Source: an uncultured Gammaproteobacteria bacterium
Lineage (GTDB): Bacteria; Pseudomonadota; Gammaproteobacteria; GCA-001735895
Length of the DNA: 64,000 nucleotides
Assembly (NCBI GenBank): GCA_963793595.1
Contig: CAWCBX010000072.1
Location: 13,769-77,768 of the forward strand
Direction of reading: 5' to 3'
A program made the translations under genes and the position numbers. This document shows positions 36,637 to 52,361 of the stretch, piece by piece; the stretch's first letter is position 1, and each line of letters starts with the position of its first letter. The notes beneath the pieces were generated by a model. It made no database searches, was not told the origin of the DNA, and saw nothing but the letters and a program-made list of their open reading frames with translations.

Positions 36637-37245
36637 TCATTTTGTCTCGCCGCCTATGAGAAAACCGCCCACTGCCAGAGCAACCACGGCCAGCATCGAC
36701 AGGCTCATGAAGATGTTGATTGCTCTGTGCCGGCGCTCGGGCAGGTCGAGTTGGTGCAGGCGCATTCCGGCCCATAGCCACAGGAAATGGATTGGAATCC
36801 AGATCGCATTCATGATTGCGAACTTCAGTGCCGTTTCGGTTGCCAGATGCTGCGGTAGAAATGAAAAACCTGCAAACAAAGTCGTGTTGACCGCATAGGC
36901 CTTGGGATTGATCAACTGCAGGGCGATGCCGTTCAACGTGCCCGGTGCCTTGCGCGCTTCGATGAATGCAATTCGGCTGCCGGAAAGAGCGATCCTGAGC
37001 GCGAGATAGAGAAGGTAGGCCGTCGACAGGACAAAGAGAAGGCTTCGGATCCGGTGATCGGCGAGAATGACCGCCGCGATCCCGGTAACGACGGCCAAAG
37101 CAACCAGGTTCGTCCCGATGAAAAGGCCCAGCACGTAACGCGTTCCGGCCCGTCCGCCAAAAGCTGATCCGACACCGGCGGTCGATAACACGCCCGGCCC
37201 CGGCGTGATGATCAGAAAGAACACCGCAGCGGCAAAGGTCAGCAT
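36637..37245 (-). CDS. LysE/RhtB-family exporter
   Basis: ITPGPGVL, YLLYLALRI, QLINPKAY motifs. Confidence 0.9.
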   Translation of the reverse strand: MLTFAAAVFFLIITPGPGVLSTAGVGSAFGGRAGTRYVLGLFIGTNLVALAVVTGIAAVILADHRIRSLLFVLSTAYLLYLALRIALSGSRIAFIEARKAPGTLNGIALQLINPKAYAVNTTLFAGFSFLPQHLATETALKFAIMNAIWIPIHFLWLWAGMRLHQLDLPERRHRAINIFMSLSMLAVVALAVGGFLIGGETK

Positions 37246-37297
37246 GGCGTACCGTCGGGCGCAATGGCGTGTCTTGCGGTTGCGCGTCGATCCGAAT

Positions 37298-38212
37298 TCA
37301 TCTGTTCTCCTCGTGGCGCGGCATGATGGCGCCTTTGGTGCAGACGACTTGCCGGGCCAGCTGGTGACCCCAGCTCAGGCAGTCGCTTTCGGATAACCCC
37401 GTCAACCGCGCCGCCAGATAGGCACCATTGAAACTGTCGCCGGCGGCGGTGCTGTCAACCACGCGCTCCGCCGGTTCGAATGGGCCGGCTTGGGTTTCGT
37501 CCAGTGCCAGCGGGCCCAGCCCCCCGCGTTTCAGTGCACCGGAAGTCACACCGAACCCGCGCAGACGGGCGATTACGGCGTCTGCATCAGCGTCACCGAA
37601 CAGCGCGATTTCATCATCGAGACTTGGGCAGGCGATGTCGGTGTTTCGCCATGCATCTGAAATAGCCTTGCGGGCCGTTTCTGCATTCGGCCACAGGGCA
37701 GGACGGTAATTCGAGTCGAATGCCACCCGACCACCCTTGGCCCGATAAAGGGGCAGCCATTCAAGGAACGCTTGGCGATCGGCGATCGGCAGGATCGCTA
37801 GTGTAATCGCTGAAAAATAGATCAGATCGGAGGCCTCGAGGTTCGCCAGCGACACCGATGGAGCTACGAACATCTCTCGCGCGGCCGAAGCGTTGCGCCA
37901 GTAGATGAACGACCGCTCGCCGGTGTCATCGGTCGAAATGGCGTAGAGACCCGGGACGCTTTTTTCGCTGTAGGTCAACAAGCCCGTGGACAGACCTTCG
38001 GATTTCATGAACTCAACAATTTCATCTGACAACCGATCACGACCGAGTTTCGTTGCGTATCCCACATCGAAACCTGGGGCGGTTCGTTTGAGATAGATTG
38101 CGGTGTTCAGCGTATCTCCTGCAAACCCAACGCGGGCCGCACCGGGCAGACGATCTCCCAGTGAAACCTCGACCATGACTTCCCCGAGGCAGACGATCCG
38201 GGGGTGGCTCAT
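37298..38212 (-). CDS. kdgK: PfkB-family sugar kinase, 2-keto-3-deoxygluconate kinase-like
   Basis: CLGEVMVE, GFAGDTLNTAIYL, GERSFIYWRNASAAR, FDSNYRPALW, DSTAAGDSFNG. Confidence 0.82.
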   Translation of the reverse strand: MSHPRIVCLGEVMVEVSLGDRLPGAARVGFAGDTLNTAIYLKRTAPGFDVGYATKLGRDRLSDEIVEFMKSEGLSTGLLTYSEKSVPGLYAISTDDTGERSFIYWRNASAAREMFVAPSVSLANLEASDLIYFSAITLAILPIADRQAFLEWLPLYRAKGGRVAFDSNYRPALWPNAETARKAISDAWRNTDIACPSLDDEIALFGDADADAVIARLRGFGVTSGALKRGGLGPLALDETQAGPFEPAERVVDSTAAGDSFNGAYLAARLTGLSESDCLSWGHQLARQVVCTKGAIMPRHEENR

Positions 38213-39105
38213 CGCAGTCTCCGCAGGTTTTCGCGCCACCAGATCAGCAGGCCGGACAGCATGATGATCAGGGCGCCGATTACGGTGAAGAGGTCCGGCA
38301 CATCTCCGAAGACGAGGTAGCCGGTGATGGCAAGATAGACGATGAAGGAATATGCATAGGGCATCAGGGCATTCGCCTCTGCAAATCCGTGGGCACGGAC
38401 AAACAGTTCGTGACCCAGCCAGCCCCAGAACCCGAGGCCGAGAAACAGAAACCAGTCAAGATATGAGGCCGGAGGCTGCCAGACCCAAATGGCTGCCGGC
38501 AGCAAGACCGCAGCGCCCAAGGCCCCGGTGTAGAACTGCATCGTCTCCGACGGAATGACACCGGAAAGTTTCCGCGTGATAATCGAAAAGTTTGCCATCG
38601 CGACCGCGTTGTAGACGCTCAAGAGCGCAAACCATGTGAAGTTGGCGCCGAAGGGCCGGATCACGATCAGGACACCTGAAAATCCCAACAGAATTGCAAA
38701 CCAGCGCCAGGGACCTACTCGCTCTCCGAGCAAGGGGACCGACAAGGCCGATACTATGATGGGCGAGGAGAACATGATCGCCGAGGTCATCGTCAAGGAT
38801 AGGTAATTGAGTGCAATGAAGTTCGAAACCGTGGAGGATACCAGTAGGGCAGAGCGCAACAGCAATAGCCCGCGATGCGACCGGGGCGGACGAAAATTTT
38901 CGAGACCCGTTCGCGACAGGAGTGCACCTGATAAGAGAAAATGTACGAAGTACCGCATGAAGGATAACTGGAGCGCCGGAAGACCGGCGATCACCAGCCA
39001 TTTGACCGAGGTGTCGACGACCGAAAAACACAGCCAGGCCAGCAACATCATAGCGATACCAAGGCTGGCGCGATCTTCGCGCGGTCTTGCGGCGAGTTCG
39101 GTCAC
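38209..39105 (-). CDS. DMT/EamA-family transporter
   Basis: About 10 TM helices, LGERVGPWRW, LVFGDVP; stop overlaps the kdgK start (ATGA). Confidence 0.9.
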   Translation of the reverse strand: MTELAARPREDRASLGIAMMLLAWLCFSVVDTSVKWLVIAGLPALQLSFMRYFVHFLLSGALLSRTGLENFRPPRSHRGLLLLRSALLVSSTVSNFIALNYLSLTMTSAIMFSSPIIVSALSVPLLGERVGPWRWFAILLGFSGVLIVIRPFGANFTWFALLSVYNAVAMANFSIITRKLSGVIPSETMQFYTGALGAAVLLPAAIWVWQPPASYLDWFLFLGLGFWGWLGHELFVRAHGFAEANALMPYAYSFIVYLAITGYLVFGDVPDLFTVIGALIIMLSGLLIWWRENLRRLR

Positions 39106-39117
39106 AATTTGCTACGT

Positions 39118-40005
39118 TCAGTGCCGGAAGCGCCGAGAGTAGAAATCCACCATCTGCGGCACAAGGTCATCGCCGTTCCCTTCCTCGATTGCCGCCGCCA
39201 TCGCAGTCCGGGCGCATTTCGACATGATGAAGTCGGCCCCCAGAGAGTCGGCCATCTGTCCGTAATAACCGACGTCCTTGGCTGCATTACGCACTGAAAA
39301 GGCCAGAACTTCGGGATCGCCGTCGATTGCGTAGCTCTTGATGAAATCCATCATGCCGGATTTCAGTGGGCCGGCGGACATCACGTCATAGAGATCCTGC
39401 CGCGGAACTCCGGCCAGATCCGCCATCGCGAAGGCTTCGCTCATCGCATTCGCCGTCGTCATCGCAAAGAAATTGTTGATAAGCTTGATGGTGTGGCCAG
39501 ACCCCAGAGGACCGAGATGGAAGACGTTTTCTCCCAGGTCGTCGAGCACCGGGCGGACCCGGTCGAACGTCGCCTTGTCTCCCGCGCACATGATGTTCAG
39601 CAGCCCGTCTTTTGCGTGCATCGGCGTCCGCCCGAGCGGTGCATCCAGCATGACGCCCCCGGCGTCGGCAACTTCGGCACCCAAAGCTTTGGTCGATGCG
39701 GGCAGGGACGTTCCAAAATCGATGACAATACTCCCGGGGCGCAGTCCGCGGATCACCCCGTCCGGCCCGCGCATGCGGGATTCCACCGATTTCGAGGTAT
39801 CCATGCAAAGCATCACGATATCCGAAGCTGCGGCGAGTTCCTTTGCCTTTTTGGCTTCTATCGCTCCGCGCGCCACCGCCGCGTCGATACGCGGCCGGGT
39901 GACGTTGCCCATCACGGTCACGTCATAACCCAAGTCGAGAAGCCGGTTGACCATGGCCGCCCCCATCAGACCCAGCCCGATAAACCCGATTTTTGGTTTT
40001 TGCAT
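39118..40005 (-). CDS. NAD(P)-dependent beta-hydroxyacid dehydrogenase (HIBADH/GarR family)
   Basis: IGFIGLGLMG, DAPLGRTP, GHTIKLINN, KDVGY. Confidence 0.88.
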   Translation of the reverse strand: MQKPKIGFIGLGLMGAAMVNRLLDLGYDVTVMGNVTRPRIDAAVARGAIEAKKAKELAAASDIVMLCMDTSKSVESRMRGPDGVIRGLRPGSIVIDFGTSLPASTKALGAEVADAGGVMLDAPLGRTPMHAKDGLLNIMCAGDKATFDRVRPVLDDLGENVFHLGPLGSGHTIKLINNFFAMTTANAMSEAFAMADLAGVPRQDLYDVMSAGPLKSGMMDFIKSYAIDGDPEVLAFSVRNAAKDVGYYGQMADSLGADFIMSKCARTAMAAAIEEGNGDDLVPQMVDFYSRRFRH

Positions 40006-40017
40006 AGTACCTTCTCC

Positions 40018-40917
40018 TTACTTGCTGTCGAACGCGCGGTTCCGAAGTCCGCGCTGGATTTCGTAGATCGATCCGACCGTGTCGGGCGGGGGTAATGGCA
40101 CTCGAACCGGCACCGACACCAGCCGGGGGTGCAGGGTCGGTGCTCCGCAGAGCATGCGGGAATCGTAGTCTTCGATGCTGTCGAACCGGGTCATCGACCC
40201 CATGATCGGGAAGGCGTCCGCTGCCATGATTTCATAAAACAGCAGCCGTCGGTCCCGGTGCGAGGTGTTAAGCGCCGAGCCATGCACGATGCGGGCATGG
40301 TGGATCGAGATCGACCCGGCCGGTCCCGTCAAGGGGACAGCGTCGTCTGGATTCAAACCTGATGCGGCGAGGTCCATCGCGCCGACAAAGACGCCATTGC
40401 TGCGATGATCGAAAATGGGACCTTTGTGGGTGCCCGGAAAGACCAGGAGCGGGCCGTTTTCCTCGCGCATGTCGTCGAGGATCACCGCGACGGCGAGGAC
40501 ATCGTCATTGGTGTGGGGATAAAAGGCGAAGTCCTGATGCCATTCGACTGCTGCGCCGAAACCAGCTGATTTCATGTTGAGCTTGGTCGTATGCAGTCGC
40601 AGGTCGGGGCCGATCAGGTCGCGCGCCGGGCCGAGGACAAGATCGGAATACATCAGGTCCCGAGCGACATCGCTAATCAGGTGCGGCAGCTTGATGCGGC
40701 GCAGACGGGGCGCGTCCGGGCGGTGGCTGTCTTCAAGATCGATCCGATCGTTGGAGCGGGTCATGCTGCGTGCCTCGTCTTCGAAGCGCGCAATTTCGGT
40801 ATGTAGTGCCGTGATGATCCGGTCCGGAATGCGGTTTTCCAAAATCAGATAACCATTGGCCTTGTAGAATGCGATCTGGTCGGGTGTGAGAACGTGGGCG
40901 TCTGGCATGCCAATCAC
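40018..40917 (-). CDS. Phytanoyl-CoA dioxygenase (PhyH) family Fe(II)/2OG dioxygenase no. 1
   Basis: FYKANGYLIL, WHQDF (HxD), HARIVHGSALN (distal His), DRR (2OG-binding Arg); start at 40917 or 40908. Confidence 0.88.
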   Translation of the reverse strand: MIGMPDAHVLTPDQIAFYKANGYLILENRIPDRIITALHTEIARFEDEARSMTRSNDRIDLEDSHRPDAPRLRRIKLPHLISDVARDLMYSDLVLGPARDLIGPDLRLHTTKLNMKSAGFGAAVEWHQDFAFYPHTNDDVLAVAVILDDMREENGPLLVFPGTHKGPIFDHRSNGVFVGAMDLAASGLNPDDAVPLTGPAGSISIHHARIVHGSALNTSHRDRRLLFYEIMAADAFPIMGSMTRFDSIEDYDSRMLCGAPTLHPRLVSVPVRVPLPPPDTVGSIYEIQRGLRNRAFDSK

Positions 40918-41750
40918 TCCGCCGGTCGAAGCGCGCGCAGCGCAGTAAGGACGCGTGAGCGATCCGGCGATATTCCAGTGTAGGACCGAAACGACGACAG
41001 GGACATATGGCAGAAGAGGTCAAACCCGGTCATCACCGAAAGACCGCGATTGGCTGCGTCTTTCAAGAACGCCGTGTCGGTTGGGGTATAGACCGCGTCA
41101 AAGGCCCATTTCTGTTGGCCAATGAGATCCGGATCAAAGGCGGAACCGGGCATATGCGGCGTGCCCATCGGCGTGCAGTTCACCAAACCGTCGGCGGTTG
41201 CTATGACCGCCGCGCACTGATCCGGATCCACTGCTCGCGCGACCGGGCCGGCCCGCTCCGCCAATTCATGTGCCAGCTCCGCTTCGGAATCCCAGATCAC
41301 GATCTCTGTTGCGCCAAGCCGAACCAGGGCAGGTACGATGGCGCGTGCAACCCCTCCCGCACCAGCCATTGCGACACGGCCGGGTCTGCGGTCCCCAAAG
41401 ACGTCGTTCCAGGCATCGAGAAACCCAACGAAATCTGTATTGTGCGCGGCCAGCCGCGGCCGGAAGATCAGGGTATTGCAGGCGCCCAGTGCCTGGACCT
41501 CAGGCCCGGAAAAGGGCGCTGAATATACTGCAGCAGACTGTTTGAAGGGGTGGGTCACGCTCACGCCGTTCCAATCTGCGGAGCGGCAGGTCTCGACACA
41601 TTCCTGGAAGTCGAAGTTGGGCCGCTCGGCACTGTCGATCAGGTCGAAGTCCAGCGTCATATTCTGCGCCTCGCACAACAGCGCCAGTGCGGCCGAAAAG
41701 CGCGAGTGCGCGATGTGATCGCCAATCAGCCCGGCCCGGATTACCGTCAT
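40914..41750 (-). CDS. Shikimate/quinate dehydrogenase-like oxidoreductase
   Basis: IAHSRF, SVTHPFK (Lys), ACNT, HNTD (Asp), GAGGVARA, VNCTPMG, DAVYTP. Confidence 0.82.
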   Translation of the reverse strand: MTVIRAGLIGDHIAHSRFSAALALLCEAQNMTLDFDLIDSAERPNFDFQECVETCRSADWNGVSVTHPFKQSAAVYSAPFSGPEVQALGACNTLIFRPRLAAHNTDFVGFLDAWNDVFGDRRPGRVAMAGAGGVARAIVPALVRLGATEIVIWDSEAELAHELAERAGPVARAVDPDQCAAVIATADGLVNCTPMGTPHMPGSAFDPDLIGQQKWAFDAVYTPTDTAFLKDAANRGLSVMTGFDLFCHMSLSSFRSYTGISPDRSRVLTALRALRPAE

Positions 41751-42749
41751 CGCTGCACGCCTTCGGGCCACGTTTCGGATTCGATCCACAGCGTCGCGGC
41801 CAGCGTCTCACGTGCATCACGGGCGTCCACCACTGGTGTCGCCCGATGGGCGATCACGTCGGCAAAATGGTTAAGCTGGAGGACGAGTGGAATGCCATCC
41901 TCCACCTCGGTTTCAGACAATATGGGACGGTCGGTCCAGGTGTGCGCGCCGCTCCAGACCCTAAGCGACGGAAACTCGATGCTGCCTTCGGTGCAGGCGA
42001 TCCGCAGACTGTCCTGCCCGGACATCGGTATCGTCGGATTTTCGCCGGTTCCGGCCTCGAACCCCCAGGGGCTGGGGGTGGTATCTGCAAAAGCAATCGT
42101 CACAATTACCCCGCTGTCAAATCCCAGCACCGCTCCGCCGCTCTCGGTGCGCGCTGCGCCGCGAATGAAATCGGTCCCGAAACCTTTGACGTGAACGACC
42201 TCGCCAAAGCAGTGGCGCAAAGTGTCCACGTCGTGAATGAGGTTTTGCTTGACCGGTGCGCCATCCGCGCCCGCACGCCAGTCAACGTCGAAGTAACTGT
42301 CGGGCTTTCGCATGGCCCAGATAAGCGAGCCGAGAACCGGTTGCCCCAAGCGCCCGGAACTCAGAATTTCTTTCAGTTTCCGAATCCGGGGGTGATGCCG
42401 CCGATGGTGTCCGACCAGAAATCTTGATTCCGGCCGCGTCGGCGGCCTTGATCATCCCGTCGGCAGCCTCGAGGCTCTCGGCCACCGGTTTTTCCACCAT
42501 CACGTGCCAGCCCCGTCTGGCGGCTTCGGCCACCAACGGGGCGTGTGTTGCGGTTGGTGTAGCAATGACGATGCCGTCCGCTTCGACATTCACCTCTTCT
42601 ATGGATGCAAAGCCCGGCACATCGGCCAGGTCGCGGTTCTGGGTCACCGGATCGATGATCCCGGCCAACTCCAGATCCGGCAACTCGAGAATATGGCGCA
42701 GATGCCGGTGTCCGATCAGCCCGGTGCCGGCCAGCAGCAACCGTGTCAC
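41747..42749 (-). CDS. Gfo/Idh/MocA oxidoreductase (one frameshift near 42420)
   Basis: GTGLIGHRH, IATPTATH, VEKP, then VGHHRRH...NLIHDVDTLR in the other frame. Confidence 0.88.
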
Positions 42750-44258
42750 ATCACCGCTCCGATCTGCCAGGGCACGAATTCATAGTCGCCAAGACCCTGC
42801 GCCTCCGATTTCGACGGCTCGCCGGATGCCACGCGCAGGAAGAGGTCGTAGATTTCACGGCCTTTGGACGCCACCGTGGCCGATCCAGTCAGAATGTCAC
42901 CGGCATTGATGTCCATGTCCTCGGTCATCCGGGCGTACATCTCCGAATTGGTGGCGACCTTGATCGTCGGGGCCGGCTTGGAGCCGAAAGCCGATCCGCG
43001 TCCGGTGGTGAAACAAACCAGATTGCACCCGCCCGCGATCTGACCGGTCACGCTGGCCGGGTCGTATCCAGGACTGTCCATGAAGGTGAATCCGCGGTCG
43101 CGGACGACATCGGCGTATTTGTAGACCCCGGTCAGCGGCGTGGTGCCGCCCTTGGCGGCGGCGCCCAGTGATTTCTCGAGGATCGTGGTCAACCCGCCTT
43201 TCTTGTTGCCGGGGCTGGGATTGTTGTCCATCGACCCCTTGTTTCTGGCGGTATAGTCCTCCCACCAGCGGATCAGTCCGACCAGCTTCTCGCCGACATC
43301 GCGGCTGACGGCGCGCCGGGTCAGCAGGTGTTCGGCGCCGTAGATCTCGGGCGTTTCGGCCAGAACTCCTGTGCCGCCCTGGGCCACCAGCAAGTCGCAG
43401 GCATATCCCAGCGCCGGATTTGCGGTGATTCCCGACCAGGCATCCGAACCGCCACATTGCAGCGCCACTTTCAGCTCTGAGGCGGGGCAGGGTGTGCGGC
43501 GGGCTTCGTTCGCGAGCGGCAGCATGGCGCGCACCTTGGCGATGCCGGCGTCAATCGTCCGCTGAAGCCCCGCAACCGACTGGATGTTCATGGTCTGAAA
43601 CAACGGACCCTGCTTGAGCCCGTAGGCTTCAAGCAGCCAGTCGATCTGGTTCATTTCGCAGCCAAGCCCGACCATAACAACGCCGGCGTGGTTGGGATGG
43701 CGCGCGTATCCCCACATGACCCGCTGAAGGGCTTCGAAGCCCTCGCCGTCTCCGGCCATGCCGCACCCCGTTCCATGAACAAAGGCAACGACACCATCGA
43801 CATTGGGGTATTTGGCCAACTCTGCGGGTCCAAAAGCGTCAGCAATGCGTCGGGCGGCGGTAGCCGAACAGTTCACCGAGGTGACGACCGCGATGTAGTT
43901 TCGCGTCCCGATCGATCCGTTCTCGCGACGATACCCCATGAAGCTGTCGCGCTGGTCGTCCGGTCCAGCGACAGGTGCGCGCAGATTTGTTCCGAACTCG
44001 TAGGCCGTGTCGGTATTGCGGAATTCCACGTTGTGGGTGTGAACATGCGCGCCCGGCGGGATATCCTCCGATGCATATCCGATCAGTTGGGCGTATTTGC
44101 GGATCTCGCCGCCTGTCATGATCGCTGACGTGGCGATCTTGTGGCCCGTGGGGATCAAGGCCCGGGTTTCTACGCCGTCTATGATATTGCCGACGTCGAG
44201 CGCGCGAGTGGCGGTGACGACATTGTCGCTGGGATCGAGTTCTGACGAAGGGGTCCAT
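42746..44258 (-). CDS. UxaA-family (altronate/galactarate) dehydratase with SAF domain; one extra base near 44240
   Basis: MDPFVRLDPSDNV after correction, GHKIA, HVHTHN, GTRNYI, VNCSATAA, HGTGCG, LQCGGSD, NNPSPGNKKGGLTTI, FTTGRGS. Confidence 0.9.
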
Positions 44259-44267
44259 GGCGGGTCC

Positions 44268-45203
44268 TCAGGCGCAGGCGGGCGCGTCGGAGCGCCACCG
44301 ATGAATGTTGATATGCGGCCCAACCGCCAGGTCTGCGCGGGCCTGCTCCCACATCGCGCGCCAGCGGCGCCAGTCCCTGAGTGCACTGTCCGGCCGCGCG
44401 GCGGATCGCGCCACGAAATCGGGGAAATGGCTGCGCCCGGTTGGCTGGCCGGTCCGGTTGTAGCGAAGGTCGAAGGACCAACGGATACCGTCCGTCAGGT
44501 TGGGCAATGAAGCATGCGGCAAAATCGGATCCAGGATCACGACACCGCCGGAGGCGACAGGCAAAGGGATTGCACGTTGGGTATCCAGAACGCCATCGGC
44601 GATCGCGGTCTGCGATTTCGGGCAGTGCGGCAGCATTTCTGAAACTCGCGGCACCACCTGAAGGCAGCCGTTCTCGACCGTTGCATCGGTGACCGCGATC
44701 CAAACGGTGATCATGTCGGTGTTGTCCGCCTCTTCCAGAGCAACCGCGCGATCCTGGTGCCAGTCGGTCCCACCCACGTGAGCACGGATCTCGCCTGCTT
44801 TCAGATCGCGTTGAGGTGGTTTTATACGCACGTGCTGGATAGGGTTTGAGGTGATTTCAGGCCCGATCAGGTCCTCGACGAGGTCCAGAAGCCGGGGGGC
44901 GGTGATCATATCGAAGACGGCAGGCCCGAAATGCATCGGTGTGTCGCTCTGAATGGTGTCGCCGGGCAGCGATATGTCCATGGCTTGAAACCAGTCCTGA
45001 CCGGCACGATAGGCGGCGATCAGCTTTGCCTCAAAGGACTGGCCCGAGAGTGTGTCGGCTATGTGCCAATCGGTCAGCAAACCCTCCAGCACGTCGGAAT
45101 ACTCCGCGCGGACCGGGTCCAGCACCGAAATCTGATCCAGCACGTTTTCGACAACGAGATAGCCGTTGCTCCGGTAGGATGTGATCTGGCTTTCACTCAG
45201 CAT
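44268..45203 (-). CDS. PhyH family Fe(II)/2OG dioxygenase no. 2
   Basis: YRSNGYLVV, HVRIKPP, WHQD, ENGCLQVVP, PHASLPN, IRWSFDLRY. Confidence 0.88.
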   Translation of the reverse strand: MLSESQITSYRSNGYLVVENVLDQISVLDPVRAEYSDVLEGLLTDWHIADTLSGQSFEAKLIAAYRAGQDWFQAMDISLPGDTIQSDTPMHFGPAVFDMITAPRLLDLVEDLIGPEITSNPIQHVRIKPPQRDLKAGEIRAHVGGTDWHQDRAVALEEADNTDMITVWIAVTDATVENGCLQVVPRVSEMLPHCPKSQTAIADGVLDTQRAIPLPVASGGVVILDPILPHASLPNLTDGIRWSFDLRYNRTGQPTGRSHFPDFVARSAARPDSALRDWRRWRAMWEQARADLAVGPHINIHRWRSDAPACA

Positions 45204-45240
45204 ATCGACGGCTCCATGCACCCGGGTCGATCGGTCATCT

Positions 45241-46872
45241 TTATTTCAGTAGCACCTCGACGATCGGCGGCCAGATCAACAGCACAGTCAAGGCCAGAAT
45301 CTGGATGCCGATGAATGGCAGAAAACCTCTGAAGATGTCGGTCAGTGAAATATGCGGCGGGGCCACGGATTTCAGATAAAAGGCGGCCGGCCCGAACGGC
45401 GGCGACAGGAAACTGACCTGCATGTTCATACAGAACAGCACTCCGAACCACACCGACAGGTATTTCGGCTGCAATTCGCCGAACAGTCCGATCTCTTCGA
45501 TGGGCAGGCGCTGAACGATCGGCAGGAACACCGGGATGATCAGCAGCACGATGCCGACCCAGTCCATAAACGCGCCCATGAAAAGCAAGATGAACATCAT
45601 CATCAGCAGGATGCCCATTGTCGGCAGGTCGGCGCCGATGATCAGGTTTGCCACATAGGTCGGGCCGCCTGCGATGGTGTAGGCCCCGGCGAGCGCCGCT
45701 GCGCCGATGGTGACCCAGATGATGGTCCCGGTGGATTTCAACGTTCGCATCAGGCTTTCCCAGACCAGATCGAAGGATGCCTCGCCGCGCAGGATCGCGA
45801 TGATCAGGACCGAGATTGCCCCCATACCCGCAGCTTCTGTGATGCCGGTGATGCCGCCATAGATTGAACCCAGCACGACGCCGATCACAACGATCGGGGC
45901 CACCAGACCCTTGCCCATCTTCCAGCCCAGGGCGGAACGGTCTCGACCGAACGCAAATAGGGCAAGCAGCAGACAGATCGCGACAATGCCACCAAACCAT
46001 GGAACGTAGTCAGCTGTACCCCAGAAAATCGGATCGGTCCCATCACCGAGGTCAGTGTTCTGGCCCATGATCGTGAAGAACAGGGCGCGCAGGAACAGAA
46101 TAACTGAAAATCCGCAGAGCAGAATGTTCAGGAAGGCGCCGAACAGGGCCAGTTTCTCCAGGCCCTGCGGTTCTCCTGGAACCGGATCGGGCAGGGGGGC
46201 GTCGTCCGGGTTCATCTGAGTGCGCACGATGATGTAGATGATGATGAAACTGGCCAGCATGAACCCCGGCAGAAAGGCCGCGGTGAACAGCGCCTTGATC
46301 GAAGTCTCGGTGATCAGCCCGTAAATGATCAGCACGATCGAGGGCGGAATCATCGTGCCCAGCGAACCGCTTGCACAGATCGTACCGATGGCGAGATTCT
46401 GATTATAGCCAAGTCGCAGCATCTGCGGCAGCGCGATGAGCCCCAGAAGGACCACCTCGCCGCCGATGATGCCGGACATCGCCGCCATGATCACAGCCAT
46501 GATCGAGGTCACGATCGCGATCCCGCCACGCGTGCGATTCAGCCAGACATTGAGCGAAGAGTACATGTCCTTGGCGATACCGGATCGCTCCAGAAGTGCT
46601 GCCATGAAGATGAAAAGCGGAATGGATATCAGCACATAATCGGTGAGCAGCCCATAGATCTTCTGAGCCAGGATGTTCAGGGGTCCCGATCCCGGGCGTC
46701 CGGTCAGGATCCCGTCGCCGAAACTGAAGGGATCCAGCAGCAGCGCGGGCTCGAACTTCAACACCAGGACCAGAACGGCCAGGAAGGCCGATGCCATGCC
46801 GAGTGGCATGCCGATGGCCAGCAGAATGACAAGGCCCAGAAGAAGGACCAAAGAGATCGTTCCGATATCCAT
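45241..46872 (-). CDS. dctM: TRAP transporter large permease DctM (elongated, 543 aa)
   Basis: ISIPLFIFMA, MSGIIGG, SGSLGTMIPPSI, GITGITEAAG, FLSPPFG; extra hydrophobic insert in the middle. Confidence 0.93.
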   Translation of the reverse strand: MDIGTISLVLLLGLVILLAIGMPLGMASAFLAVLVLVLKFEPALLLDPFSFGDGILTGRPGSGPLNILAQKIYGLLTDYVLISIPLFIFMAALLERSGIAKDMYSSLNVWLNRTRGGIAIVTSIMAVIMAAMSGIIGGEVVLLGLIALPQMLRLGYNQNLAIGTICASGSLGTMIPPSIVLIIYGLITETSIKALFTAAFLPGFMLASFIIIYIIVRTQMNPDDAPLPDPVPGEPQGLEKLALFGAFLNILLCGFSVILFLRALFFTIMGQNTDLGDGTDPIFWGTADYVPWFGGIVAICLLLALFAFGRDRSALGWKMGKGLVAPIVVIGVVLGSIYGGITGITEAAGMGAISVLIIAILRGEASFDLVWESLMRTLKSTGTIIWVTIGAAALAGAYTIAGGPTYVANLIIGADLPTMGILLMMMFILLFMGAFMDWVGIVLLIIPVFLPIVQRLPIEEIGLFGELQPKYLSVWFGVLFCMNMQVSFLSPPFGPAAFYLKSVAPPHISLTDIFRGFLPFIGIQILALTVLLIWPPIVEVLLK

Positions 46873-47777
46873 CAGCTGTGGCCTTTCTGGTCACCTTGTA
46901 TCGCACCGCGGGTTACGTCCAGTTCGCCGACGCCCTGGGCCCCGACGGCTTGCCGGAGTTTTTCGAGCTCGTCCGCGTCGATATCATCCGCGGCTGTGTG
47001 TATGACAGGTTCGGCGTTCCAGTCTGATATCAGGTTGATTACCGACTGGATCGCGACCATCGCCACGACGAACAATACCATCGGTTTGAGTGTTGCCGGT
47101 ATCGGCGGGTCGAACGCGGTCCCGAACGTCTCCCAACGATAGAACTTGTCGAAGGCTTCGCCATATCCTCCGTAGATCAGTGCTCCGGCGAAGATCAGGA
47201 TCAGGGACACCGAAATGATATCAAACAGACGCTGTATGCCGCGCGGCATCACGTCGTAGAGCAGAAAGATCCGGATGTGGCTGCGCTGCTGCATCGCGTA
47301 GAGCCCGGCCCCCAGAAACACAAACCCGGCGAGCCAGAGCGATAACTCATTGGCCCAGAGCGTGGGAGCTTCGAATGCGTAACGCAGCACGACCTCGTAG
47401 AGCATCACACCGGTCAGCAGGACGATCATCATCATGATGACGCGACCAATGAACACCGCCAGCCGGTCTGCGGTGCGCCAATCTTCATATTCCATCGGGG
47501 CGCGCTGCACTGTAAACAAACCGATCACGCCGAAAACCGGTACGCCAATCAATGCAATCCAGTCGATGGCATCGGCAAAGCCCCCGAAAAGGCCGGGCAG
47601 TTCCGGCGTGATGTCGTTCCGTCGGAACAGGGCGCTGAGCTTGTCGACCTGCGATGGTTCATCCGGTGGAAACCAGTCGAGGATGAAGGCGGGTGCATGC
47701 CATGTCAGCCACCCCGCGCAGAAAACGAAAGCCAAGGGCACCAGCCATTCGACCAGGCTGCCGGATTTCTCGTGCAT
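46872..47777 (-). CDS. dctQ: TRAP transporter small permease DctQ with N-terminal extension (301 aa)
   Basis: YEVVLRYAFEAPTLWANELS, HIRIFLLY, WETFGTAFDPP core, preceded by about 95 extra residues with two TMs. Confidence 0.88.
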   Translation of the reverse strand: MHEKSGSLVEWLVPLAFVFCAGWLTWHAPAFILDWFPPDEPSQVDKLSALFRRNDITPELPGLFGGFADAIDWIALIGVPVFGVIGLFTVQRAPMEYEDWRTADRLAVFIGRVIMMMIVLLTGVMLYEVVLRYAFEAPTLWANELSLWLAGFVFLGAGLYAMQQRSHIRIFLLYDVMPRGIQRLFDIISVSLILIFAGALIYGGYGEAFDKFYRWETFGTAFDPPIPATLKPMVLFVVAMVAIQSVINLISDWNAEPVIHTAADDIDADELEKLRQAVGAQGVGELDVTRGAIQGDQKGHS

Positions 47778-47871
47778 GGGACTCCTCCCGGCGGTGGTTG
47801 GACCGGCGCGCCGTCAAGATCGGAGAAAAGGCGGCAAGCCCGAAACCGGGCTTGCCGAAGAACCCGTTAGA

Positions 47872-48891
47872 TTACTGGGAGACCAACCCGAGTTGGTTCA
47901 GATAGGCCAGATGCAACTCGACCAAAGCCTTGGCCTCGGGCGTGTCGGCAAATTCCGGCCATGTGGCCTGGGCCGCGTTGCGGAATTTCTGCAACTCCTC
48001 TGGCGACCATTCCGACAGAGTGATGCCGTCTGCACGCAGCTTCGCCGCCGCTTCGGCATTGGCCTTCTCAAAGGTCAGGGCCGTGCGCAGGGCCAGCGCT
48101 TCCATTGCAACTTCCATGATGCGGCGATGTGCCTCCGGCATGGCGTCCCATCTTTCCTTGTTGCACGCCAGATGGTCGGACGGCATCGAGTGGAATCCTG
48201 GAAAGTTGGCGTATTTCGCGATGTCATAAAGTCCCAGTCCGACGTTGTTGGACAGGCCGCTGGCATCAGCACCATCAATGATACCGGTTTCCAGCGCGGT
48301 GAAAATTTCGGTGAAATCCATCACGATCGGCTTGGCGCCTAGCTTTTCGAAGATCTTGGTCTCCATCCCCGGTGGCGACCGGAATTTCCAGTCCACCAGA
48401 TCGGCGGTCGATGCAATCGGCTTGGTCGAGGCAAAGCTTTCCTGACCGTAGACCCACCAGCCGACCAGCTCCATTCCGTATTTGTTGTACAGCGGCTGGG
48501 CTGCTTCTCTGCCGCCACCGTAGTAAAGCCAGCTCAACTGCTGGTACGGGGTGGCATACCCGCCCATAATGTCACCGACGAATTGAAACGCCGAGTTTTT
48601 CCCCGTCTGATAGGCGCCGCCCGTCATGTCGCAGTCCAGAATGCCAGTTGCGGCAGCGTCGAAAGTCTCAACCGATTTGACCACCGATGACGAATAAAAC
48701 ATCTCGACCTGAATTTCGCCATTCGACATGGTCTGAATGTCATCGATGTACTGGGCGGCCAGCTTCCCGGAGACGGTTTCCGGTGCGTAGTGGGTCTGAA
48801 TGCGCAGGGTTGTGGTCTCGGCCACAGCGGACGAGCCCGCCACGAGTGCCGTCGCGCTGACGGCAGCAGCGGCCAGTTTCAAAATTCTCAT
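47872..48891 (-). CDS. dctP: TRAP solute-binding protein DctP
   Basis: Signal peptide, KFRSPPG with the conserved carboxylate-binding Arg, EIFTALETGIIDGAD. Confidence 0.92.
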   Translation of the reverse strand: MRILKLAAAAVSATALVAGSSAVAETTTLRIQTHYAPETVSGKLAAQYIDDIQTMSNGEIQVEMFYSSSVVKSVETFDAAATGILDCDMTGGAYQTGKNSAFQFVGDIMGGYATPYQQLSWLYYGGGREAAQPLYNKYGMELVGWWVYGQESFASTKPIASTADLVDWKFRSPPGMETKIFEKLGAKPIVMDFTEIFTALETGIIDGADASGLSNNVGLGLYDIAKYANFPGFHSMPSDHLACNKERWDAMPEAHRRIMEVAMEALALRTALTFEKANAEAAAKLRADGITLSEWSPEELQKFRNAAQATWPEFADTPEAKALVELHLAYLNQLGLVSQ

Positions 48892-48982
48892 TGGTTTCCT
48901 CCCGGTTTCCATAAAGCATCACCGTCGCGGACCTTTTGCGGCCATTGTCTGCGGTGACGCCATGAGAGAGTAGCAACGACCC

Positions 48983-49049
48983 GGAATTCTGCCAATAACA
49001 ATCTGAAAATCATAATAATTTCAAAATTTTTTCCTTTTTGCAGAATTCC
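48983..49049. promoter_or_regulatory. Inverted 10-bp repeats in the dctP/gntR divergent promoter (putative operator)
   Basis: GGAATTCTGC (48983-48992) and GCAGAATTCC (49040-49049). Confidence 0.5.
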
Positions 49050-49083
49050 AGACTAGAGTTGGCTCAGTCTAAGAGGTCGCGAT

Positions 49084-49722
49084 ATGCGTGTGGAAACACC
49101 GGACATCTACAGAGATTTGCAGCGAAAACTGATGACGGTTGCGTTTCGCCCGGGTGAAAAACTGAAACCCAAAGCATTGCAGGGCCTCTACGGATGTTCG
49201 GCCAATACGGTTCGGGATGTTCTGTTGCGCCTGTCCAAGGTCGGCCTTGTGGAATTCGAGATGCAGCGCGGATTCCGGGCTGTGGCTACCTCAGCTGAAC
49301 GCCGCCGCGACGTCACCAAATTCCGAATCCTTCTGGAGCAGGAGGGCGCCCGCTTGTCGATCGAGCATGGTGGTGTCGATTGGGAAGCAAAACTGTTCGC
49401 CGCGCACCACAAGCTGAGCCATATCGAGACGCAGATCGCGAGCCAGAGTGTGGTGCAGCCTTTCATGGACCTTTGGTCCGATGCAGAGATTGAGTTTCAT
49501 CAGACCCTAATCTCGGAATGTCGGTCGCCGCTGCTACGGGAGACATACGGCAACATCTACGTCCAGTTTCGCCAGCAGATGGTCAGCCAGGAGCGCGATT
49601 TCGGCACTAACTACTTTGAGGCCATCATCTCCGAGCATCAGCGAATTCTAGACGCCGCGCTGGCCCGGGACATCGATGGCTGCAAACAGGCGATCTATGA
49701 TCACCTGAAGCGCAATCTTTAG
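49084..49722 (+). CDS. GntR-family (FCD) transcriptional regulator
   Basis: FRPGEKL...SANTVRDVLLRLSKVGLVE...RGF wHTH; C-terminal FCD (EFHQTL, SEHQRILDA). Confidence 0.92.
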   Translation: MRVETPDIYRDLQRKLMTVAFRPGEKLKPKALQGLYGCSANTVRDVLLRLSKVGLVEFEMQRGFRAVATSAERRRDVTKFRILLEQEGARLSIEHGGVDWEAKLFAAHHKLSHIETQIASQSVVQPFMDLWSDAEIEFHQTLISECRSPLLRETYGNIYVQFRQQMVSQERDFGTNYFEAIISEHQRILDAALARDIDGCKQAIYDHLKRNL

Positions 49723-50696
49723 CTACGTTTCAGGTCATCCGCGACGTAGGCCTCGATGATCGAGTGGAAATCTGTCTCGGCGCGGTAACCGAGCGAGAGG
49801 GCGCGCTTGGGATCGAAATCCTGCGGCCAGGCCGCAACCATGCGCATGATCGTCGGGTCCGGTTCCGGGCGGATCAGCGCGACGGTCTCGGATCCGGCAA
49901 TATTGCGCAGAGCTTCGATCTGCTCCTCGACGGTGCAGCTGATGCCCGGCAGGTTCAGCGCACGGCGTCCCTCAAGCCGCTCCAGATCCAGCAGGGCGGA
50001 ATGCCGCAGAAAACCAACTGCCGACCGGGGGGACGCGTGCCAGTGCCGGGTACTGGCGGGTACAGGCAGCACAGCTGGTTGTCCGTTCAGGGGTTCGCGA
50101 ATAATACCGGAAAAAAACGACGATGCCGCCTTGTTGGGCTTGCCGGGCCGGACGCAGATGGTGGGTAGCCGGATGGAGATCCCGTCGACGAATCCCTTTC
50201 GGCTGAAATCCCCCAGCATCAGTTCGCCGATCGCCTTTTGCGCGCCATAGGAGGTCTGTGGGGCGCTCAGGAAAAGGTCGTCGATCTTGTCGGGGTAGGG
50301 GCCTCCGAACACCGCGATCGACGAGGTGAAGACAACGCGCGGGCGGTATTTGCCACCACTTTCTTTGTGTTCCGACCGCAGAGCTTCCAAAAAGGTCCAG
50401 AAGGCCATCATGTTGGTCTGCCAGCCTTTGTCGAAATCCGCCTCTGCCTCGCCGGACACGATTGCGGCCAGATGAAACACCACGTCAGGCCGTGCAGAAA
50501 CCAGGGCTGTGACCGCCGCTGGATCGGTAATGTCCGCCGAAATGCGTTGCGCGGCTGGCGCGCCAGGTTCCGGGAAGTGGATATCGAACAGTGTGACCTC
50601 AGGAGACGGGTCATCGCCCAACCCGTCGGCGGCAAGCGAGGCCGCAAGTTTCTGCCCGATCATCCCGCCGCCGCCAATCACCAGAATACGTGTCAT
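49719..50696 (-). CDS. denD: D-erythronate dehydrogenase-like extended SDR
   Basis: GGGGMIG, FHLAAIVSGEAEADF, TSSIAVFG, SYGAQK, RLPTICVRPGKPNKAASSFFSGIIREPL. Confidence 0.75.
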   Translation of the reverse strand: MTRILVIGGGGMIGQKLAASLAADGLGDDPSPEVTLFDIHFPEPGAPAAQRISADITDPAAVTALVSARPDVVFHLAAIVSGEAEADFDKGWQTNMMAFWTFLEALRSEHKESGGKYRPRVVFTSSIAVFGGPYPDKIDDLFLSAPQTSYGAQKAIGELMLGDFSRKGFVDGISIRLPTICVRPGKPNKAASSFFSGIIREPLNGQPAVLPVPASTRHWHASPRSAVGFLRHSALLDLERLEGRRALNLPGISCTVEEQIEALRNIAGSETVALIRPEPDPTIMRMVAAWPQDFDPKRALSLGYRAETDFHSIIEAYVADDLKRS

Positions 50697-51586
50697 GCCG
50701 GATCTCCTTTCAGCCCGTTTTGCGCCCGCAGTTCGAGGTACAGGCCAGAGTGATCCTTGTCGGCGCCGTCAAGCTCCGCGCAGAAATACGCAAATCGGCG
50801 ACGGACGTTTTCCGACAATGGCAGCGTCAGTCCCAACTGTGCTGCCTCGTTCAGAAGATTGTCGAGATCCTTCAACTGAAATTTCGAAAGACCGCCGGGG
50901 ATGAAATTGCCGGTTGTCATCCGTTCGCCATGTTGCTGCAGGATCGTGCTGTCGGCAAACCCGCCCTTCAACGCCTGCCGAACGGCTGCCGGATCCGCAC
51001 CGCCCTGTTCGACCAGCAACATGGCCTCTGCCACGGCGCCGATGGTCACCGCGACGATGGCCTGATTGGCGAGTTTCGAAAGTTGCCCGGTGCCGGAAGG
51101 ACCCACACGGACCGGCCGGCCCATGGTTTCGAGGATCGGTTTCACCTGTTCGAACGTTTCCGGGTCGCCGCCAACCATGATGGCAAGGCTCGCCGCTTCG
51201 GCGCCCCGGGTTCCACCGGAGACCGGCGCATCCAGATGCGCGACGCCCAGTGTTGCCAGATCCGCCGCCTGCGTGCGCGCTTCATCGGGTTGGATCGATC
51301 CCATCTCGATCCAGGTCATACCGGGGCGCAACACCGCCCGCAGGTCCGGATCTCTCTGAACGCGCGCACTGGCTGACCCATCGCTGAGCATCGATATCAC
51401 TGCATCGGCGTCGCTCACGGCCCCGGCAGCAGTGTCGCATGCCTCTGCCCCGAACTCTGCAAGGGGTGCGGCCTTGGATGCGGTGCGGTTCCAAACGCGC
51501 AAAGGATAGCCTGCGCTCAGAAGGTTTCGCGCCATCGGTTGGCCCATCAGCCCGGTGCCCAGCAATGCGATCACTGGTTTGCCCAT
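50693..51586 (-). CDS. NAD(P)-dependent beta-hydroxyacid dehydrogenase (2-hydroxy-3-oxopropionate reductase-like)
   Basis: GTGLMGQPMARNL, DAPVSGG, GQLSKLANQ, QLKDL; start behind GAGGAG. Confidence 0.87.
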   Translation of the reverse strand: MGKPVIALLGTGLMGQPMARNLLSAGYPLRVWNRTASKAAPLAEFGAEACDTAAGAVSDADAVISMLSDGSASARVQRDPDLRAVLRPGMTWIEMGSIQPDEARTQAADLATLGVAHLDAPVSGGTRGAEAASLAIMVGGDPETFEQVKPILETMGRPVRVGPSGTGQLSKLANQAIVAVTIGAVAEAMLLVEQGGADPAAVRQALKGGFADSTILQQHGERMTTGNFIPGGLSKFQLKDLDNLLNEAAQLGLTLPLSENVRRRFAYFCAELDGADKDHSGLYLELRAQNGLKGDPA

Positions 51587-51596
51587 TCGCATCTCC

Positions 51597-52361
51597 TCAG
51601 ATTGAGGCGGTGATCCCGCCATCCACGTAGAGCGTGTGCCCATTGACGAAGGACGATCCCGACCCCGACAGGAACACGGCCGCACCGACCAGTTCATCGA
51701 CGTTACCCCAGCGGCCGGCGGGGGTGCGTTTTGCCAGCCATTCCGAAAACGTTGGATCATCCACCAGCGCCTGGTTAAGCGGGGTCTTGAAGTAACCCGG
51801 CGCGATGGCGTTGACCTGCAGGCCATGCCGGGCCCAATCGGTCGCCATGCCGCGCGTCAGATTGCGGATCGCGCCCTTGGTGGCGGTGTAGGGCGCAATG
51901 CCAGGACGCGCGAGTTCGCTTTGAACCGACGCGATGTTGATGATCTTGCCCTGACCGCGCGGGATCATCGCCCGGGCGACGGCCTGACCCACAAGAAATG
52001 CACTGGTGATGTTGGTGGACAAAAGCTGGTTCCACTGGGCCAGTGGAAATTCCTCGAGCGGCGCGCGGAACTGCATGCCGGCGTTGTTGATCAGAATATC
52101 GATCGGGCCTTCGGTTTCGATCGATGCGACGGCGCCCGTGACCGCATCGGAATCGGTGACGTCGAAGGCTTCCTCCGACACTGAATGCCCCTCTTCCCGG
52201 AGTTTCGCGGCCACAGTCCGAAGCCGCTCGGCCTGTCGCGCATTCAACACGACATGCGCCCCATGTTGCGCCAGCCCGCGGGCAAGGGCCAGCCCGATCC
52301 CCATGCTGGACCCCGTGACCAGTGCGCGGTGTCCGGACAAATCGAATAGTTGACTGGCCAT
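51597..52361 (-). CDS. idnO: Gluconate 5-dehydrogenase (SDR)
   Basis: MASQLFDLSGHRALVTGSSMGIG, NNAGMQFRAPLEEF, SVQSELARPGIAPYTATKG, RTPAGRWG. Confidence 0.88.
   Translation of the reverse strand: MASQLFDLSGHRALVTGSSMGIGLALARGLAQHGAHVVLNARQAERLRTVAAKLREEGHSVSEEAFDVTDSDAVTGAVASIETEGPIDILINNAGMQFRAPLEEFPLAQWNQLLSTNITSAFLVGQAVARAMIPRGQGKIINIASVQSELARPGIAPYTATKGAIRNLTRGMATDWARHGLQVNAIAPGYFKTPLNQALVDDPTFSEWLAKRTPAGRWGNVDELVGAAVFLSGSGSSFVNGHTLYVDGGITASI

Follow-up and report, generated by a model that had tools for sequence, protein, structure and literature searches.

A TRAP-linked sugar-acid operon of marine bacteria in which two PhyH-family oxygenases appear to be accessory modules

In agar degraders such as Vibrio sp. 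EJY3, 3,6-anhydro-L-galactose (AHG) is degraded by an AHG dehydrogenase, a 3,6-anhydro-L-galactonate cycloisomerase (ACI), a 2-keto-3-deoxy-L-galactonate 5-dehydrogenase and a reductase leading to 2-keto-3-deoxygluconate (KDG), followed by KdgK and Eda (PMC5943477). The operon described here, at positions 37298–48891 of a 64,000-nucleotide stretch of contig CAWCBX010000072.1 (the window, meaning the whole stretch that was analysed), resembles that route in its predicted end point, KDG and a KDG kinase, and in combining one beta-eliminating enzyme with dehydrogenases and a kinase. It differs in that a UxaA-family enzyme takes the position of ACI and that the zinc-dependent alcohol dehydrogenase (ZnADH) and short-chain dehydrogenase/reductase (SDR) are replaced by enzymes of the HIBADH, Gfo and AroE types; moreover, it lacks an aldehyde dehydrogenase, relies on a tripartite ATP-independent periplasmic (TRAP) transporter for uptake of the acid, and contains two Fe(II)/2-oxoglutarate (2OG) dioxygenases, enzymes unknown in the AHG route. 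The hexuronate and L-galactonate pathways of E. coli employ UxaC, UxaB, UxaA, KdgK and Eda, and LgoD. A UxaA-family dehydratase and a KdgK-like kinase are shared with the window, whereas the window's dehydrogenases belong to other families and the E. coli routes have no oxygenases. A third point of comparison is the DauB/Gci-type enzyme of the Zobellia 3,6-anhydro-D-galactose route (DauA-D, carrageenan) and of the oxidative uronate pathway (Gci), putative counterparts of which are found in related operons but not in the window, the match of these counterparts to DauB being moderate (292 bits).

The two dioxygenases, PhyH1 and PhyH2, have relatives of described function in other settings. PHYHD1 and FJS demethylate the 2'-O-methyl ribose of nucleosides (PMC12709175), and MahX and MahS open the cyclic acetal metaldehyde (PMC9676059). 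These belong to the same Pfam family and use the same cofactor set as PhyH1 and PhyH2, and hydroxylation of a C-H next to an ether oxygen is the chemistry that we propose for the latter; they are, however, distant in sequence, and their substrates and gene contexts differ. Nearest to PhyH1 in both fold and sequence are hydroxylases of small free carboxylates, namely GriE (an L-leucine 5-hydroxylase), proline hydroxylase H11 and EctD. In contrast with these, PhyH1 scores under the EctD cut-off, lacks the full EctD signature and lies in a context of sugar-acid catabolism rather than of amino-acid or ectoine metabolism.

The region 37298–48891 is a GntR/FCD-controlled operon for the uptake of a small carboxylate by a TakP-clade TRAP transporter with unusually long membrane subunits. 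It consists of eleven co-oriented genes on the minus strand, with families all backed by Pfam and NCBIfam, and a divergent GntR/FCD-family regulator gene (49084–49722, plus strand; Pfam GntR and FCD). The order, shared orientation, coordinates and family calls given in a first-pass annotation of the sequence agree with ours, as does its description of a single TRAP-fed sugar-acid operon in which a dehydratase of the UxaA family is combined with a kinase resembling KdgK. The transporter is encoded by dctP (solute-binding protein, 47872–48891; PF03480, 7e-47; start taken from the ribosome-binding site (RBS) and orthologues), dctQ (long form, 301 aa, 46872–47777; PF04290) and dctM (long form, 543 aa, 45241–46872; PF06808), so that all three TRAP families occur in consecutive genes. 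These are followed by phyH2 (Fe(II)/2OG dioxygenase, 44268–45203; PF05721, 6e-24), a uxaA/garD-family sugar-acid dehydratase gene (42746–44258; SAF, GD_AH_second and GD_AH_C domains; +1 frameshift), a Gfo/Idh/MocA oxidoreductase gene (41747–42749; N- and C-terminal domains in different frames) and an AroE-like gene of the shikimate/quinate dehydrogenase family (40914–41750; Shikimate_dh_N and Shikimate_DH). The second dioxygenase gene, phyH1 (40018–40908; PF05721, 2e-32), then precedes a HIBADH-type (beta-hydroxyacid/semialdehyde) dehydrogenase gene (39118–40005; NAD_binding_2 and NAD_binding_11), an EamA/DMT transporter gene (38209–39105; PF00892 twice) and a KdgK-like PfkB kinase gene (37298–38212; PF00294). 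Stop and start overlap at dctQ/dctM, uxaA/gfo, gfo/aroE and eamA/pfkB, with starts set by orthologue alignment; of the five overlaps originally counted these four are certain, while the fifth, aroE/phyH1, depends on the GTG at 40917 (minus strand) serving as the start. Most other gaps had been put at under 40 nt and measure 9–37 nt, except for 94 nt on the 3' side of dctP.

A species-genome collection yielded 236 relatives of PhyH1, and locus counts were taken from the best 80 (66–78% identical), which come mostly from Rhodobacterales and Hyphomicrobiales and are largely marine. Near PhyH1, the same TRAP genes with long DctQ and DctM are found in 51–53 of the 80 loci, EamA in 51, PhyH2 in 34, UxaA in 33, GntR in 30, AroE-like in 28, Gfo in 23 and PfkB in 11. 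In 17–18 loci there are two or three additional Gfo genes, and in 8 there is UxaC together with a mannitol-dehydrogenase-family UxaB/UxuB. The orthologues of DctQ in related loci are 41–76% identical and those of DctM 62–88%. Because this set was anchored on PhyH1, a second search was anchored on DctP. It covered an even sample of 401 genomes from the family that includes Ruegeria marisflavi (Roseobacteraceae), and 109 of these (about 27%) have a DctP orthologue. PhyH1 orthologues (at least 64% identity) were found in 41 genomes, 38 of them with DctP (odds ratio 52, p = 7e-21), and PhyH2 orthologues in 66, 63 of them with DctP (odds ratio 132, p = 1e-39); a paralogous PhyH1-like clade (45–49% identity) behaves similarly, with 29 of 32 genomes containing DctP (odds ratio 35, p = 5e-15). 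Thus, 93–95% of PhyH1 and PhyH2 orthologues are confined to transporter genomes, and the assignment of the PhyH genes to the operon holds. Conversely, PhyH1 or PhyH2 is present in 70 of the 109 transporter genomes and the two together in only 31, whereas 30 are free of any PhyH.

Twenty DctP-anchored loci were fetched, 16 from genomes without a PhyH1 orthologue and four chosen for a nearby PhyH1 paralogue or as further examples. Nine have neither oxygenase and otherwise the same operon (L132, L133, L135, L137, L138, L140, L142, L144 and L146), with the gene order dctPQM-uxaA-(gfo)-(aroE)-(DAO)-HIBADH-eamA-(pfkB). Three (L134, L139 and L145) have PhyH2 only, and two (L149 and L150) have PhyH2 together with the PhyH1 paralogue. 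Since they depend on the transporter system and yet are dispensable for it, PhyH1 and PhyH2 are best described as accessory modules on an oxygenase-free trunk, and since the PhyH-less operons are otherwise the same, the trunk substrate needs no oxygenase. The view of the oxygenases as obligatory steps is therefore not supported. The first-pass annotation had itself named absence of PhyH from most orthologous clusters, or binding by DctP of a plain aldonate needing no oxygenase, as results that would speak against it; these have come about in part, as 30 of the 109 transporter genomes are PhyH-less. The substituent removal that it proposed would still be a reasonable role for the accessory modules. 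No characterised pathway with this gene set was found in full-text literature searches, as it had stated.

The substrate of the trunk can be approached through the transporter and through the beta-eliminating enzymes. DctP falls in the TakP/lactate-binder clade; its best PDB match is 4pe3, followed by the lactate and keto-acid binders 2zzv and 7ug8. In the DctP tree, operons of the UxaA type and of the enolase (cycloisomerase) type are mixed inside one well-supported clade; as they intermix in a clade with short branches, the ligand is probably common to both operon types and the two kinds of beta-eliminating enzyme are probably interchangeable or complementary. Mandelate-racemase-type (enolase-superfamily) genes are found in the operons of many UxaA-less loci and of some UxaA-bearing ones, where they occupy or join the UxaA slot. 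Four types can be told apart. The ACI type (9 loci; E = 2.7e-156 and 523 bits to 5xd7) matches the solved Vibrio 3,6-anhydro-L-galactonate cycloisomerase. In loci of the L039 type it is followed by a ZnADH and an SDR beside the transporter, an arrangement also present in L141, whose DctP is 82% identical to that of the window, and this gene composition matches the published anhydrogalactonate-to-KDG route. The DauB/Gci type (11–14 loci; 333 bits to 4ggb, 292 bits to 5olc) occupies the dctP-dctQ interval in four loci and occurs in L039-type loci as well; we take 4ggb to be a proposed galactarolactone cycloisomerase and 5olc to be the Zobellia 3,6-anhydro-D-galactonate cycloisomerase. The 2ovl type (9 loci) stands exactly in the UxaA position, matches a Streptomyces protein (440 bits; about 59% identity, an alignment estimate) and is 44–45% identical to the ACI type. 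For the fourth, of 431 aa, no functional relatives were found. UxaC and UxaB again flank the operon in L133 and L138 of the DctP-anchored set, and UxaC alone in L134. Because related operons swap or add ring-opening cycloisomerases, the downstream enzymes of the known anhydrogalactose route or UxaC/UxaB, the substrates suggested are hexonates of the galacto series or of 3,6-anhydro type that originate from red algae; the best-fitting series is inferred to be the galacto-configured hexonates, i.e. 3,6-anhydro-L/D-galactonate, L-galactonate and D-galacturonate. This link to anhydrogalactonate-type cycloisomerases had been overlooked earlier. Two more distant loci were seen. At L094 (9786–12485), a DctP 68% identical to that of the window is accompanied by a DauB-like enolase, a DgoK-like kinase and a DgoA-like aldolase, with no PhyH; judged by these genes it looks like a De Ley-Doudoroff-type variant. 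A Skermanella plasmid has a 48% identical PhyH1 homologue with enolase-superfamily genes, a TRAP system and a DHDPS-family aldolase.

The UxaA homologue clearly belongs to the UxaA/GarD family (three domains, E 1e-8 to 8e-102) and is closer to GarD (318 bits to E. coli GarD, 6u7l), while its score against the galactarate dehydratase equivalog TIGR03248 (370 bits) is below the cut-off of 730.85. The kinase is likewise a member of the PfkB family that scores under the KdgK equivalog (NF052444, 277.9 bits versus a cut-off of 400). The AroE-like translation holds the SVTHPFK and NTD motifs and has QsuD (3jyo, 123 bits) as best PDB match; all 18 of its NCBIfam matches are under their cut-offs, the best at 174.5 versus 235. 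For the HIBADH-type protein, the best NCBIfam matches are GarR/tartronate semialdehyde reductase, again under the cut-off. Both the HIBADH-type gene and eamA are retained in PhyH-less operons. Two other assignments were considered and set aside: a galactarate route (GarD with GarR), for which both the GarL aldolase and the glycerate kinase are missing and the scores stay under the equivalog cut-offs, and a sulfonate or sulfate-ester pathway (a SuyAB-like UxaA, with EamA as sulfite exporter), for which there are no sulfonate genes and the known exporters are of other families.

The two oxygenases score 113.7 (PhyH1) and 85.9 bits (PhyH2) against PF05721 (cut-off 22), and the HQD...H...R motif reported for both is present as WHQD...H...R and is invariant among orthologues. 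In PhyH1, W123-H124-Q-D126, H203/H204, H209 and R220/R221 are invariant in 37 sequences; in PhyH2, TDWHQD, PH-S and RWSFD-R are conserved in 35. The AlphaFold (AF2) model of PhyH1 has a jelly-roll fold (pLDDT 90), and the nearest structures are GriE and H11 (28–30% identity, Foldseek E about 1e-20), then PHYHD1, PhyH and EctD, so that PhyH1 is best taken as hydroxylating a small free carboxylate. The PDB matches of PhyH2 are all weak, namely to EvdO2, which we take to be an orthosomycin sugar oxygenase, to PHYHD1 (E = 1e-7) and to SyrB2. Ectoine hydroxylation and PhnY/PhnZ-type phosphonate cleavage, which had been considered unlikely, are excluded by the score against the EctD equivalog TIGR02408 (79.9 versus a cut-off of 336.5) and by the absence of an HD-domain PhnZ partner from the operon and its flanks (NF052437, 35 and 22 bits versus a cut-off of 500); the EctD signature FxWHSDFETWH is shared in part only, the motif reading VEWHQDFAFYPH.

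The HIBADH gene lies directly downstream of PhyH1 in 57 of the 80 loci, and in 16 a DAO-family flavoenzyme gene lies in between. The paralogous PhyH clade likewise adjoins a HIBADH paralogue, and from this recurrence we infer that oxygenase and reductase act in sequence; the paralogue pair may be a second oxygenase-reductase module. Such a pair is located 10–17 kb from the TRAP operon in many roseobacter genomes (e.g. L148, 12914–14700; L149, 14812–16600; L150, 18618–20000). In two further loci (L005, 10001–17434; L021, 9887–17434), a lone PhyH1 (76–77% identical) is accompanied by a GlxA/AraC-type regulator and a heterotetrameric sarcosine oxidase (soxBDAG), and no sugar-acid genes are found nearby.

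The reading that we favour, tentatively and at slightly less than even confidence, is that the operon takes a six-carbon sugar acid of the galacto series to KDG, with the PhyH proteins as accessory, ether-hydroxylating modules. The TRAP system would import a hexonate-type acid, which the UxaA-family enzyme would beta-eliminate to a 2-keto-3-deoxy acid; the HIBADH-, Gfo- and AroE-type dehydrogenases would adjust the stereochemistry, and the KdgK-like kinase would phosphorylate KDG. Such a trunk, to which the EamA transporter also belongs, would parallel the anhydrogalactonate route step by step with non-homologous enzymes, or else the path that leads from L-galactonate to KDG by way of tagaturonate and altronate. 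PhyH1 and PhyH2 would hydroxylate an oxygen-bearing C-H of a trunk-substrate relative that is decorated or closed into a ring; candidate targets are the 3,6-anhydro bridge of anhydrogalactonate and O-methyl ethers. The resulting hemiacetal would collapse to a carbonyl, to be reduced by the adjoining HIBADH-type enzyme, so that additional sugar acids of red-algal type could join the trunk. A chemically neat case would be hydroxylation of 3,6-anhydro-L-galactonate at C6, giving D-galacturonate in its furanose form. As PhyH1 shares some operons with cycloisomerases, O-dealkylation is at least as likely as ring opening.

Several observations weigh against this picture. Ring opening by PhyH1 would be redundant where a cycloisomerase shares the operon, and to our knowledge UxaA-family enzymes do not open anhydro rings. 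The nearest folds to PhyH1 are free amino-acid hydroxylases (GriE, H11), not sugar oxygenases. The closest solved relative of DctP, 4pe3, carries no ligand name in the search output, and is presumably an apo structure; the 2ovl-type enolase matches a protein of unassigned function. The window's own genome lacks ACI, UxaC and UxaB, and its only KDPG aldolase (Eda) is a broken fragment on a contaminant-looking contig. Finally, lone PhyH1 copies 75–77% identical exist, two of them beside sarcosine oxidase genes, and these neighbours, or the DAO-family gene between phyH1 and HIBADH in 16 loci, could point to an amine substrate. Since sugar-acid enzymes dominate the gene context, an amine or N-methyl substrate is kept as a caveat and not taken as the explanation.

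A more specific version of the preferred galacto-hexonate reading assigns a task to each oxygenase: one PhyH would open 3,6-anhydro-L-galactonate at C6, the other would O-demethylate methylated red-algal sugar acids, and HIBADH would reduce the carbonyl, together making an O2-dependent entry route by which non-agarolytic roseobacters could use the anhydro and methyl sugars of agar and carrageenan. Stated in such detail it is doubtful; the transporter plus PhyH1 or PhyH2 is present in 70 of the 401 family genomes, roughly a fifth.

A different matter is whether the copy in the window works at all. Two frameshifts in adjacent genes had been overlooked. In uxaA there is a +1 shift after codon 6: the orthologous ATG is at 44258, an extra A lies near 44240, and the N-terminus of the orthologues reads M-x-P-F/Y-V-R-L-D-P-S-D. 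In gfo, a +1 shift at codon ~110 (~42420) splits the gene into an N-terminal Rossmann portion and a C-terminal portion that lie in different frames. The orthologues are unbroken, for gfo in 23 of 23 (~333 aa) and for the uxaA N-terminus in the 14 inspected. It is quite possible, if short of our leading expectation, that the window copy is a non-functional relic, horizontally acquired and now being lost, whatever the family does elsewhere. The two shifts occur in adjacent genes while long open reading frames (ORFs) elsewhere in the genome are normal (27 ORFs of at least 1000 aa), and for that reason the assembly does not appear generally error-prone in indels. Of 79 genomes from the window's GTDB order only 2 have the TRAP transporter, and of 400 in a class-wide sample only 5, so that the cluster is foreign to this lineage. 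The closest relatives have two extra Gfo genes (gfoX2-gfoX1, ~2 kb) between pfkB and lysE (L003, 14673–16719, compared with 37245–37298 in the window) and a DAO gene between phyH1 and HIBADH, and the window has neither; in addition, no intact Eda was found in the assembly. Against loss of function, the remaining nine operon genes, gntR and the upstream DenD-type gene align over their full length in one frame, the control region is unbroken, and the uxaA shift touches only six N-terminal codons, such that translation could still begin at a TTG or GTG further upstream. In addition, each shift lengthens a short homopolymer run (AGA to AGAA in uxaA, ATT to ATTT in gfo), and the two may be either real decay or a local assembly error. 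The window copy was thus probably acquired horizontally and may be decaying.

For the family as a whole, the main competitor is an ordinary aldonate or uronate pathway, which we regard as somewhat unlikely. Here a common hexonate or hexuronate (L-galactonate, D-galacturonate or D-altronate) would be imported and interconverted to D-altronate by HIBADH, AroE-like and Gfo, UxaA would make KDG and KdgK would phosphorylate it, with the PhyH proteins peripheral, e.g. in scavenging minor analogues. The PhyH-less transporter genomes with otherwise the same operons speak in its favour. It also accommodates the UxaC/UxaB genes flanking the cluster in several loci and the semialdehyde reductases among the best matches of HIBADH, and in a genome without UxaC/UxaB a bypass in which three dehydrogenases convert galacturonate to altronate by way of L-galactonate and tagaturonate would fit the gene count. 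Against it stand the observations that PhyH1 and PhyH2 almost never occur without the transporter and lie inside the operon with overlapping or short junctions, that homologues of anhydro-sugar-acid-type cycloisomerases recur in the operon, and that DctP groups with lactate/keto-acid binders and not with known uronate or aldonate binders.

The proposal of the first-pass annotation, in which the PhyH proteins must act first, removing an O/N-methyl or amino group from a modified sugar acid or quinate-like cyclitol acid ahead of redox adjustment, dehydration and phosphorylation, now appears improbable. The two PhyH genes do lie inside the operon together with an AroE-like dehydrogenase, PhyH-family O-demethylases provide a precedent, and a DAO-family flavoenzyme is present in 16 loci, but 28% of transporter genomes have the trunk with no PhyH, and only 28% have both PhyH proteins. 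The cyclitol-acid idea is further weakened because AroE-like, Gfo and PfkB vary across loci (28, 23 and 11 of 80, as given above), and no cyclitol-specific enzymes were seen. Very unlikely, finally, is an oxygen-driven stereo-inversion in which PhyH1 would oxidise a carbinol (e.g. C5 of 2-keto-3-deoxy-L-galactonate) to a ketone that HIBADH reduces with opposite stereochemistry to KDG, which would irreversibly replace the dehydrogenase and reductase that the known anhydrogalactose route uses: the adjacency of phyH1 and HIBADH, repeated in the paralogous pair, would fit, and the minimal TRAP-enolase-PhyH1-HIBADH operon of L015 would be complete, but L039-type loci redundantly hold ZnADH and SDR together with PhyH1 and PhyH2, HIBADH is retained in PhyH-less operons, and the use of 2OG would be wasteful where NAD-dependent enzymes suffice.

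The control region between gntR and dctP (48892–49083) contains, on the minus strand, the repeats AATTTTGAAATT (49028–49017) and GATTTTCAGA (49011–49002) as candidate GntR operators, a promoter-like TTGGCA (48995–48990) separated by a 17-nt spacer from TACTCT (48972–48967), and an RBS, GGGAGGA (48903–48897), ahead of dctP. Between gntR and dctP, 26 related loci likewise have AAATTTCAAAATT-type repeats and a TTGGCA-N17-TAGGCT box, and the RBS is conserved there too; the AATTTTGAAATT-type repeats are likely GntR operators over the operon promoter. The best NCBIfam match of the GntR protein is CsiR-like, under the cut-off; gntR is retained beside dctP in 30 of the 80 loci. Inside the 94-nt dctP-dctQ gap is a GC-rich hairpin with an 11 bp stem and a T-rich tail (47832–47857, minus strand), probably an mRNA stabiliser or attenuator favouring the binding protein over the membrane subunits.

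Upstream of the regulator and on the same strand as the operon are three genes, for an SDR (51597–52361; PRK07523, 453 versus a cut-off of 413), a second HIBADH (HIBADH2, 50693–51586) and a DenD-type dehydrogenase (49719–50696; D-erythronate dehydrogenase NF043036, 366 bits versus a cut-off of 325). This trio (49719–52361) is probably a linked operon, and it flanks the cluster, whole or in part, in many related loci. Further along, an IlvD/Edd-type dehydratase ORF (54266–55171) stops early at about 55.17 kb, and from 55805 onward there are FlgL/flagellin-like genes whose proteins look foreign beside the flanking genes.

Elsewhere in the assembly, the operon's UxaA and PfkB/KdgK genes are the sole homologues of their kind. 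The assembly has no ACI (best match 27% identical), no UxaC at E <= 1e-5, no UxaB and no DAO-type homologue; the canonical hexuronate isomerase pathway is thus not found in it. Further PhyH paralogues (contig C106, 22468–23391; contig C91, 16993–17853) and the broken KDPG-aldolase fragment (contig C145, 5049–5231) lie on contigs whose genes look foreign to the alphaproteobacterial host. Judged by their protein sequences and neighbouring genes, these contigs are probably gammaproteobacterial material, and the assembly seems to mix two organisms. The PhyH1 paralogues on C106 and C91 were accordingly set aside as uninformative, their contigs being read as a likely gammaproteobacterial contaminant.

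The operon family is real, widely shared in marine bacteria, common in roseobacters and uncharacterised: transporter and trunk occur in about 27% of the 401 family genomes, accompanied in about two thirds of these by at least one PhyH protein. Related systems are carried by cultured strains, among them Ruegeria marisflavi WL0004, R. aquimaris XHP0148 and Litoreibacter spp.; the DctP proteins of Ruegeria and Litoreibacter are 86–89% identical to that of the window. For the window's genome, the locus represents mainly a horizontally acquired, possibly decaying copy. Even if the galacto-hexonate reading fails, the pattern of accessory modules on a fixed trunk is a target for ligand screening and enzymology. 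If that reading is true, it would explain cross-feeding of abundant non-agarolytic alphaproteobacteria on red-algal galactan products, and it would add Fe/2OG oxygenases to sugar-acid catabolism, in which we know of none.

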